A stretch of 38,511 nt of DNA, taken from contig JAQGDQ010000346.1 of assembly GCA_030141605.1 (NCBI GenBank), forward strand, positions 1 to 38,511, read 5' to 3'. Positions 32,301-38,031 of this stretch are shown here, one piece after another; within the stretch, counting starts at the first letter, position 1, and every line of letters begins with the position of its first letter. The translations under genes were made by a program, and so were the position numbers. The stretch is from Tubiluchus corallicola. Lineage: Eukaryota > Animalia > Priapulida. The notes under the pieces were generated by a model that worked only from the letters and a program-made list of their open reading frames with translations, did not search any database and was not told the origin of the DNA.

Positions 32301-35300
32301 GAGCTTCCTCCTAATACTTGTTTCAAAAAAACCATCCAGCTTGCAGAATTGTTCTTAAAGATCAGACCATGTCAAAACCCTTAACAATTTAGAGAATTGA
32401 TAGAGATTCCTTCTAATGTCGTCTCAAACGAACTGTCGGAATTCATAATGGTTCTTAAAGCTCAGACCAGACCGAAACACTTGGCAATACCAAAAAAAAA
32501 ACATACAGCACTCAAAATAGTTGTTAAAGATCAGACCAGATCAAAACCCTTGACAATTTACAGAATTGCTACAGATTCCTCATAATGCTTGTGTGAAACA
32601 AACCATTTAGCATCAAAACAGATCTTAAATCTCAGACCAGATTGAAACAGTTGACAATTTACAAAATTGCTAGGGATTCCTCATAATACTTGCGTAAAAC
32701 AAACCAGCTAGCGTTCAGAACAGTTTTTAAAGATCAAATGAGATTGAAAAATTTGACAATTTTTATGGAATAACCAGAGCTTCCTTATAATAACTTGGTG
32801 GCGATTTTTATCTATGCAATTCAGCACACTTCAAACTGGAATTCAGTACTCACCGACAGTGCCTACTTAATGTGGATCGTTGTGGCACGACCGGAACATG
32901 GCTTATTAATAATGGTAATCTTCTAAGATGCGAAACTGAACTCGTAGAGGTGTCTTGGCTATTCTCCTTCGTCGTGCTGAACAGTCAGAATCAGTATGAC
33001 AAATTTAATTGCCCGGAGCACAGATCGATTAAACACAAACGACTACAAATCTTTCACAAGCTAGTCTCGCGTAACTTGTGCCGTGTGTACTCGGCTAAAA
33101 CCTCGCTTCCGCTTGTGCAAATATTTCTGTAGGTTTATAAGAAAGAAAAACAGTATCGTAAAAGGTTTATTCCTCTAATTCCGGACTCTCCGTTTTAGTA
33201 CTGGCAAGATTACAGATTAAAATGGGACCCAGCCTACTACGGTGGCATCAATAGCACAATTATTCCAGTAGACAAAGTATGGACACCAGACATCATTTTA
33301 TTAAACAGGTAAGAGCTGGGAGTCTGCTGATTAATTAGCCCATTTTTAGGATTAAGTGAATGTTCAATGAAAACATATAAAGTAAAAAACTAGTAGCAAG
33401 GAAAACCTAGTTGTTGTCTTACCAAGATAACATCTTGCTGACAATCTAACAGTTTTTCATAGATAAAGCGCTTGAGCTTCATGAACCTATCCTTTCCTCC
33501 TAGTAGAATTATTTCCTAGATGTGGAGATGCATGGCGAATTATTAACCAAATTAATTTACTGCAAATTCAGCGAAATAAATTTTTCATAGTTTTCAAGAG
33601 GATTTTTGTTTTAACATTACTTAAATTTATAGCCACTGGTTGATTTCGTTAATGAGACTGCGTATGTATTTGTACAGTTTATGAAAATTGTCATTTTCAT
33701 CGCTTTTATTAACGGCGAGAGAGATGATAGAAAACAAAAAATGTGAGCTTAAAAATATAAACAAATAATTTTATTTGAAAGCAATTCTTTGTAGCTGTCT
33801 TGTGTTTCTTCAGGCTTCAATCATGCACTTCAAGCTGCGGTTTCAGAAAATTGTTTAATTAACATATTTTATTCTTGCACTAATATAAAACAACATTACC
33901 ACACCTTATATGAATTCTCATAACTAGGTTTTGTAATAATGGAATTGCAGAGTCAATTAAATCTATTTTTATATTTACTATGTGTAGCGTAAGTACTGAA
34001 GGATTATCAGGGGACACCGCAATGTCATTCTTGACTGTTAGTTACACAGGAATGGTGCGTTACATGTACAAGTCAAACGACGTCACAGCTTGTGGAATTG
34101 ATATGAGGTTTGTTTAGTTGATAACAGAAAAAACAACAACAAACAGAAAGTCTGTATTGAAATCCAAAAAGTTTTTTTCTTTAAAAGTAAGCTTTAAAAA
34201 TCACGTGTTTATGTTATCCGCGATCACTGACGTCACGGATTTAGGACGTCACGTGATGTTGATTTTTTATTTCATTATTTAAAGGACCCTTGACTAAGGT
34301 ACATTCAACTGATAATTAGTCGCGAGCATCAAGCGCAGTGGTTAGCCACAAGCCCACAACTGAGCATAATAATCTGAAAGTGTTAACTTGAGTTAACCGC
34401 ACTCGATCAGGTATCGTCAGGTGTAAACGCGGTCACGGCGTTACGATCGCGAATTTGGATTTAAATTTATTCAGTCTTGTTAGAAATTTACATCAGTACC
34501 ATTACATTAATGAAGTGAATTTTAAAAACATTTAGCTCTAAACATAAGTACCCTGAAGAAGGGACTTTCTCTTTGTTGTTATTTTATTAACGAATGACTG
34601 AACCAAGTAGTTACAGGTACATTTTTGAAAAGTTTGTTTATTTATCTAAATAAAGATTACTTATACATTTTATACATTTAGTTAATTACTTAGAGTTATT
34701 GATGAAATGAGATCGATGTAAATGTGTACTTTTTGACTAGGCGTTAAGCTTTTTATGGATACGCTTTGCCAATGAATAAGCAAACAATGAACATGCAAAG
34801 AAAAACAATGAATAAGCAAACAATGAACATGCAAAGAAAAACAATGAATAAGCAAACAATGAACATGCAAAGAAAAACAATGAATAAAGAAACACCGAAT
34901 AAACAAAAAATAAACAAACCGGTATTGAACAGGCAAACAGTATGTCAAGCAAGCAATAGGCAAACAAATAGCGAACAAGCAAACAACGTGGCCAACGTTT
35001 CATCCATAATATCAATATTTTTTAATAAAACAAATTGAGTAGATTACCAAACGTTAGAATAAACTGAATTTGGCTTAATTAATATAGACAGATGCCACTT
35101 CAAATATTTAAGGCTTTTAGCGAATATGTACAATAGAAATTGCAGTATCGAGGCTTGAGCAGTTAAAGGCTCTTAGTAACTGTAATAATGCTTAACTACC
35201 ACTGATTTTTTTCTCTTAGGAATTTTCCTTTTGATGAACAAAAATGCATTCTAAAATACGGTGCAGCCACAGTGGGAGTCAATGTCATGGATTTACACCA

Positions 35301-38031: not shown

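Follow-up and report, generated by a model that had tools for sequence, protein, structure and literature searches.

A nicotinic receptor-type subunit filed in or next to the DEG-3 group and lacking the loop B tryptophan: a candidate for a remodelled ligand pocket

Introduction

Can a nicotinic acetylcholine receptor (nAChR) subunit that lacks the tryptophan of loop B still receive a ligand on its principal face, and what would that ligand be? This question is raised by a gene on a 38,511-nucleotide stretch of DNA from Tubiluchus corallicola (contig JAQGDQ010000346.1), the whole of which is referred to here as the window. An earlier note, made from the sequence, had described an alpha subunit whose acetylcholine (ACh) aromatic box was dismantled and had proposed it as a candidate receptor for a different ligand. 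Here, we examined the structure of the gene, the residues of its binding site and its place in the receptor family, and we weighed the possible functions of its product.

Results

A nine-exon receptor gene with an open reading frame. The feature originally described (33199..36159) comprises exons 4 to 7 of an nAChR-type subunit gene of nine exons, which extends from 29848 to 38031 on the + strand (Table 1). The joined reading frame is open over 495 codons, with no stop or frameshift, and all eight introns are GT-AG, in agreement with the intact frame and splice sites described earlier. The hydropathy peaks of the spliced protein correspond to a signal peptide and four transmembrane (TM) helices, and single exons matched Pfam PF02931 (Neur_chan_LBD) and PF02932 (Neur_chan_memb). 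Exon 1 is a prediction and the least certain of the nine, its junction lacking RNA support; exon 5 is the most divergent of the extracellular exons. The loop between TM3 and TM4, encoded by exon 9, is short and highly charged, and the tail that follows TM4 is about 50 residues long and rich in Ser and Thr, with an N-glycosylation sequon at 488.

Table 1. Exons of the receptor gene and other features of the window
Feature	Positions	Strand	Observations
Exon 1	29848..29891	+	Predicted start (ATG) and signal peptide (hydrophobic stretch); GT donor keeps the phase of exon 2
Exon 2	30120..30282	+	N-terminal helix and beta1; weak Pfam Neur_chan_LBD match
Exon 3	31948..31992	+	Loop D Trp81 (31981-31983), Glu71 of the beta1-beta2 loop; joined to exon 4 in X6
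Exon 4	33199..33308	+	Loop A, Leu119 replacing Tyr (TTA, 33301-33303); Pfam E 1.3e-11
Exon 5	33988..34107	+	Loop E and first Cys of the Cys-loop; no Pfam match alone
Exon 6	35220..35358	+	Remainder of the Cys-loop and loop B; Ala177 replacing Trp (GCC, 35266-35268), Val179 (35272-35274); Gly175 and Lys173 kept
Exon 7	35973..36159	+	Loop C (Tyr220, Cys222 and Cys223 at 36009-36020; Phe227 at 36030-36032; Asp229), pre-M1 Arg238, TM1
Exon 8	36478..36591	+	End of the TM1-TM2 insert, pore helix M2, M2-M3 Pro298; best PDB matches DEG-3, DES-2, ACR-23
Exon 9	37466..38031	+	TM3, short intracellular loop, TM4, C-terminal tail, TAA; hydropathy peaks
Likely dispersed repeats	32030-32135, 34400-34480, 35560-35840		In introns; high depth and loose ends in X1
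Long microsatellites	31498-31639, about 36790-36920		
Region of divergence	31700-36760		About 8% divergence from the window in X5 and X6, in exons as well as introns; far less in X3
Likely LicD/fukutin-like phosphotransferase genes	14703-17181, 23670-26156	+	Two exons each; weak Pfam LicD matches
Papain-family cysteine protease exons	6821-7423, about 8323	-	Pfam Peptidase_C1, E 1.4e-10; active-site-like motif near 8323

Within the window there was no other receptor gene, no spare receptor exon and no gene for a partner subunit. Its other genes include the two likely LicD-like genes, whose second frames share about 25% identity; for one of the two, an Atlas search returned LicD clusters at 0.92. 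Their position near a choline-type receptor is probably due to chance.

Splicing and selection. Four of six listed sequencing runs were aligned to the window. Two of them, from other studies and both under the same species label, bear on the use of the gene. In X6, a run presumed to be RNA, one contig of 164 nt joins 31991 to 33198 at GT..AG, linking exon 3 to exon 4, and 28 of 30 displayed letters of its loose end agree with the end of exon 2. This contig carries 10 differences from the window in 121 aligned bases (a copy about 92% identical) and therefore derives from a divergent population, a sister species or a close paralogue. Exons 2 to 4 of this near copy are spliced in the presumed RNA run. 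X5, which is DNA from a third study, has three of the X6 differences and aligns in introns too, and a divergent orthologue is therefore favoured; the divergence of X5 and X6 possibly reflects a cryptic species or a divergent population.

Six of the seven changes listed for X5 in exon 4 are silent and one replaces Asp by Glu. The resulting pN/pS of about 0.04 (binomial p 3e-4) refers to one 36-codon exon in a depth-2 contig and to the listed differences only, which are 8 of 14 in the X5 contig; for X6, 4 of 10 are listed. No change in the codon of Leu119 was among the listed X5 differences; the coverage of both data sets excludes exons 6 and 7, hence loops B and C, a gap that carries no information about expression. 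The lack of a transcript together with a dN/dS near 1 had been named as an outcome that would count against the earlier proposal. The splicing of exons 2 to 4 of the near copy, with the RNA status of X6 presumed, and the mostly silent changes point the other way, the latter for exon 4 only. The receptor gene is real and apparently functional.

The aromatic box is remodelled rather than dismantled. We mapped the binding site onto that of ACR-23 of Caenorhabditis elegans, in which W78, Y116, W178, Y222, C224 and Y229 correspond to W81, L119, A177, Y220, C222 and F227 of the query. All the changes described in the earlier note were read in the sequence: Leu replaces the loop A Tyr, Ala176-Ala177 replaces Ser-Trp in loop B, Val179 stands in place of the Tyr that the note called Tyr151, and the second loop C Tyr is Phe227. 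The labels Tyr93 and Trp149, which the note gave to the loop A and loop B aromatics, follow its own numbering. The features said to be kept are likewise present, namely the Tyr-Pro-Cys-Cys of loop C, the Cys-loop (Cys156-Cys170, Cys-x13-Cys) and the loop D Trp, the last in exon 3, just outside the feature originally described. Alignments with alpha2, alpha4 and alpha7, with alpha3 and with the Torpedo subunits were gapless at loops A, B and C and restored no Trp or Tyr at the changed positions, so a misalignment of loop B was rejected. A hidden alternative exon was also ruled out for the window, where a search for another loop B exon, one with a Trp, gave nothing.

By nomenclature, the vicinal cysteines (Cys222/Cys223) make the protein an nAChR alpha subunit. 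Of the residues expected in an ACh-binding alpha subunit, the loop B Trp and the loop A Tyr are absent (Ala177 and Leu119), and the loop C aromatics are present as Tyr220 and Phe227. Two of the five box aromatics are thus lost. In muscle receptors, a Lys/Tyr/Asp triad couples binding to gating, and Lys173, Tyr220 and Asp229 match it; the triad was present in 61 of 145 rows. Passages of PMC9319688 describe the role of the triad Asp and report that an Arg plugs the site of beta2 and beta4 at the position of Gly175, where the query has the alpha-type residue. Because the Tyr-x-Cys-Cys of loop C, Phe227, Trp81 and the Lys173/Tyr220/Asp229 set stay in place, we describe the box as remodelled, and "dismantled" goes too far.

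Elsewhere in the extracellular domain, Cys65 of beta1 (exon 2) is unpaired and occupies a conserved position at which 36 of 41 rows have Gln. The beta6 strand (exon 5) lacks its usual Pro and aromatic residue; in loop E, most displayed aligned rows have Pro at the position of Lys149 and an aromatic at that of Asp152. By analogy, Cys65, Lys149 and Asp152 would face the vestibule or a subunit interface.

Only the tryptophan loss stands out among relatives. Every one of the 145 fetched proteins that combine an intact Cys-loop motif with vicinal cysteines had the loop B Trp, as did 158 of the 159 strict Cys-loop motif matches among 263 fetched proteins. This set is redundant, was chosen by similarity to exon 7 or to P0021 (a relative described below) and therefore under-samples divergent subunits. 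In a pairwise tally of 114 fully covered relatives, the loop A residue was Tyr in 95 and another residue in 19, position 151 was Tyr in only 76, and the second loop C aromatic was Tyr in 85, Phe in 14 and Trp in 14. The rows of this tally that seemed to lack the Trp were artefacts or doubtful models: P0064 has the Trp, P0107 lacks the second half of the Cys-loop and P0240 has no vicinal Cys match. Apparent further cases of Trp-to-Ala replacement in BLAST rows (P0064, P0083 and P0095) were also artefacts, as all three proteins have the Trp. Judged from these alignments, the Trp loss alone is exceptional, and its combination with a retained loop C is unusual. The substitutions at position 151 and from Tyr to Phe in loop C are common variation, so the changes listed in the earlier note, all of them real, are not equally meaningful.

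The query kept 22 of the 26 columns conserved at 95% or more, including C156, C170, C222, C223, R238, E274 and P298. The four that changed were the loop B Ser, the loop B Trp, a TM1 Phe and the 9' Leu. Of 52 well-conserved columns, 13 differ from the consensus in the query, a higher count than in any other row among the 48; four of these departures lie in M2 (0', 6', 9' and 13'). The protein is divergent throughout; therefore, the changes in the pocket may partly reflect general drift.

Placement in or next to the DEG-3 group. Close relatives of the gene were scarce. The best 150 matches of a profile search with exon 7 against 1.84 billion representatives were all at most 46% identical. A word-based search with the same exon gave four candidates and no match, two scans of metagenome contigs found no relative, and an Atlas search with exon 7 returned fragment clusters only. 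The best full-length match of the spliced protein was P0021 (33.9% over 431 columns), a protein of 483 amino acids on a Logan contig of 1989 bases. Like the query, P0021 has Leu in loop A, Tyr-Pro-Cys-Cys with Phe-Pro-Asp in loop C and a four-residue insert between TM1 and TM2; unlike the query, it keeps the loop B Ser-Trp and the normal 6' Thr and 9' Leu. P0021, a DEG-3-type alpha subunit, may represent an intermediate state.

The TM1-TM2 insert was present in the query and in 24 fetched rows, and every one of these with a named source organism was from a nematode (among them ACR-5, ACR-23 and DES-2/DEG-3 types). We use the insert as a marker derived from these alignments, not as a published definition of the DEG-3 group. 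In the main tree, which is unrooted and holds 47 rows kept from 123 region-covering matches after removal of near-duplicates, the query was sister to P0021 (98/89), and both grouped with ten nematode DEG-3-type rows, giving a set of 12 rows at 100/99. The query, P0021 and the nematode rows also grouped together (98/99) in a 29-row tree built without the insert columns, and quick trees gave the DEG-3-type grouping 82 from the extracellular part alone and 99 from the TM part alone. P0021 was sister to the query in three of four trees and lay outside the nematode rows in three of four. The branch of the query was the longest in the tree, at 1.98 (about two changes per column).

Raw identities divide between the two parts of the protein. 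In the extracellular part, fish alpha7 was highest at 36.3%, against 22-28% for the nematode DEG-3 types; over TM1-3, identity was 34-45% to DEG-3 types, 27.6% to alpha7 and 44.8% to an alpha9-like row. Despite the fish alpha7 value, an ordinary alpha7-like or alpha9-like placement was rejected by AU tests, which excluded the query from nine alpha9-like rows (p 0.034) and from twelve alpha7-like and other rows (p 0.018). The tests did not reject an attachment immediately outside DEG-3 and P0021 (p 0.071). The only Priapulus protein fetched, P0235, groups with alpha9-like rows. From the unrooted trees, and given the long branch, we file the query as a member or immediate sister of the DEG-3 group, which is the nearest characterised family according to the trees and the insert and which the earlier note had missed.

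With DEG-3/DES-2 (PDB 22qs), ACR-23 (PDB 8zfk) and ACR-5 the query shares the tree grouping, the insert, the -1' Glu and the 20' Asp. The M2 helix encoded by exon 8 reads -1' Glu (E274), 2' Ser, 6' Ala, 9' Met, 13' Ile and 20' Asp, and the 6' Ala and 9' Met, like the low extracellular identity, set it apart from the DEG-3 group. The -1' Glu is present and the Pro-Ala-Arg of anion-type channels is absent, as in a cation-type Cys-loop receptor; cation selectivity is predicted from the -1' Glu. ACR-23 differs in having the loop B Trp and the loop A Tyr that it needs for betaine, and its monepantel-site Asn (N248) is Ser in the query. Our literature search found no paper on the DEG-3/DES-2 structure, and among the papers that it listed none reported a DEG-3 member in priapulids or outside nematodes. 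Portions of four papers (PMC2936538, PMC2662886, PMC8747062 and PMC11377560) call the group nematode-specific, and the first of these mentions more distant homologues in Schmidtea.

Discussion

Our leading reading, to which we give a probability of roughly 45%, is that the query is a live cation-channel subunit whose pocket has been remodelled for another, probably environmental, ligand. According to the parts of PMC11377560 that describe ACR-23, betaine is held in a box of Y116, W178, Y222, Y229 and W78, and Y116A, W178A and Y222A each almost abolish the betaine current. Since the equivalents of Y116 and W178 are absent, binding of betaine, choline or ACh at the query's own principal face is improbable. 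This part of the earlier proposal of another ligand follows from the ACR-23 mutagenesis; the dismantled box on which the proposal was built does not hold. The pocket would have lost the Trp and the Tyr used to hold a quaternary ammonium, and Ala176/Ala177 and Leu119 would leave a larger, less aromatic cavity that the retained loop C may still cap. Glu71, the Cys-loop, Arg238 and Pro298 would relay capping to the pore, which has a ring of -1' Glu, and the channel, as a homomer or a heteromer, would be opened by a different ligand. As a guess, Glu83 and Arg145 of the complementary face could accommodate a ligand that is polar or zwitterionic.

Retention of Tyr220, the vicinal cysteines, Gly175, Lys173 and Asp229 on a branch of about two changes per column is consistent with a pocket still in use. 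Vicinal cysteines can, however, persist in subunits without a principal site, as in alpha5, and the main competing explanation is an accessory role. The query would then pair with a Trp-bearing paralogue of the P0021 type, lend Trp81 to the choline or betaine site of that partner and tune gating through its altered pore (6' Ala and 9' Met). In favour of this role, the query retains the loop D Trp despite the loss of two principal-face aromatics, its sister P0021 still has a loop B Trp, and DEG-3 and DES-2 assemble as a heteromer, five PDB entries holding 10 and 15 chains of them. Excerpts of PMC9319688 supply the precedent of alpha5 as an alpha-type accessory subunit with, like beta3, an incomplete principal site. 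They also describe vertebrate accessory alpha5 and beta3 as lacking the first loop C Tyr, with a conserved loop B in beta3. The query is the reverse of this: unlike alpha5, it keeps Tyr220, and unlike beta3, it keeps the loop C Tyr, the vicinal cysteines and the post-loop-C Asp (Asp229) and loses the loop B Trp. For this reason, we rank a remodelled, still used pocket above an accessory role, which is further weakened by the altered loop E of the complementary face (Lys149 and Asp152) and by the absence of a partner gene from the window. The margin is thin; an accessory role is somewhat unlikely as an alternative, and the two can both hold in a heteromer.

Other explanations carry less weight. 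DES-2/DEG-3 is required as a conducting pore for sound responses of C. elegans without ACh, as stated in sections of PMC8602785, and the query, with its pore retained, its Trp lost and a Met at the 9' gate, might extend this role as a ligand-independent pore subunit of a mechanosensory complex. We think this improbable, as DES-2 and DEG-3 act in this manner with the loop B Trp intact (as read in their Rhabditophanes orthologues), the same sections report no mechanically activated current in HEK cells, and nothing in the sequence indicates force gating. Slightly more improbable still is a low-affinity ACh or choline receptor that works through Tyr220, Phe227 and Trp81. Three of the five box aromatics and the vicinal cysteines remain, and channels of the DEG-3 group already work at millimolar choline (PMC8747062, in part), but replacing either W178 or Y116 by Ala nearly silences the betaine response of ACR-23, and the query lacks both. 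The longest branch in the tree, the greatest number of departures from the consensus and the odd beta6 strand would fit a duplicate decaying under relaxed selection. The absence of any stop or frameshift across 495 codons, the splicing of the near copy and the mostly silent exon-4 changes make such decay the least credible of these explanations, and a very unlikely one.

The remodelled pocket has a working analogy in the cephalopod chemotactile receptors CRT1 and CRB1, nAChR-derived channels in which a change of ligand at the orthosteric pocket is already known from passages of PMC11526382 and bioRxiv 10.1101/2025.03.03.641191. The likeness raised in the earlier note holds as an analogy, and nothing in this analysis takes it further. 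Exon 4 matches CRT1 (E 3e-5) far more weakly than nAChRs (E 4e-10), the listed matches of exons 6 to 8 include no cephalopod chemotactile receptor, and our trees were built without them. CRT1 is described as binding via Y58, W122, F124 and F192, and in the query, as placed by the alpha7 alignment, Arg and Met occupy the pocket positions of loop E. Alpha-type subunits with eroded sites are common among lophotrochozoan nAChRs as well, the principal site being fully conserved in 13 of 33 oyster alpha subunits according to portions of PMC6896357, and the frequency of such sites in molluscs lowers the novelty of the present case; further Trp-less alpha subunits may be among the oyster sequences. 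The ACh-insensitive orphan Alpo4, unlike the query, keeps the loop B Trp and lacks vicinal cysteines (PMC10338036, in part), and divergent nAChR subunits also occur in insects, as passages of PMC2064938 indicate.

A sensory history can be sketched for the subunit. According to sections of PMC8747062, DEG-3/DES-2 is found in sensory neurons and prefers betaine and choline to ACh. The DEG-3 group may predate nematodes. In a priapulid-like worm, one branch may have given up the loop A Tyr first, as P0021 also did, and the loop B Trp later, turning into a chemoreceptor that detects a non-cholinergic compound of sediment or prey. Nicotinic receptors would then have given rise to a taste-type receptor independently of cephalopods. 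We offer this scenario as speculation and consider it doubtful.

A natural subunit with loop C and the gating path in place and the key Trp gone would be a direct test case for ligand change in nicotinic receptors, with P0021 as a Trp-bearing sister for side-by-side comparison. In an early-branching nematode, the family placement would be unremarkable. If a DEG-3-type gene sits in a non-nematode host, the statement that the DEG-3 group is nematode-specific needs revising. That specificity has been used to explain the selectivity of monepantel; its revision would therefore matter for estimates of how old betaine and choline sensing is, and for non-target invertebrates.
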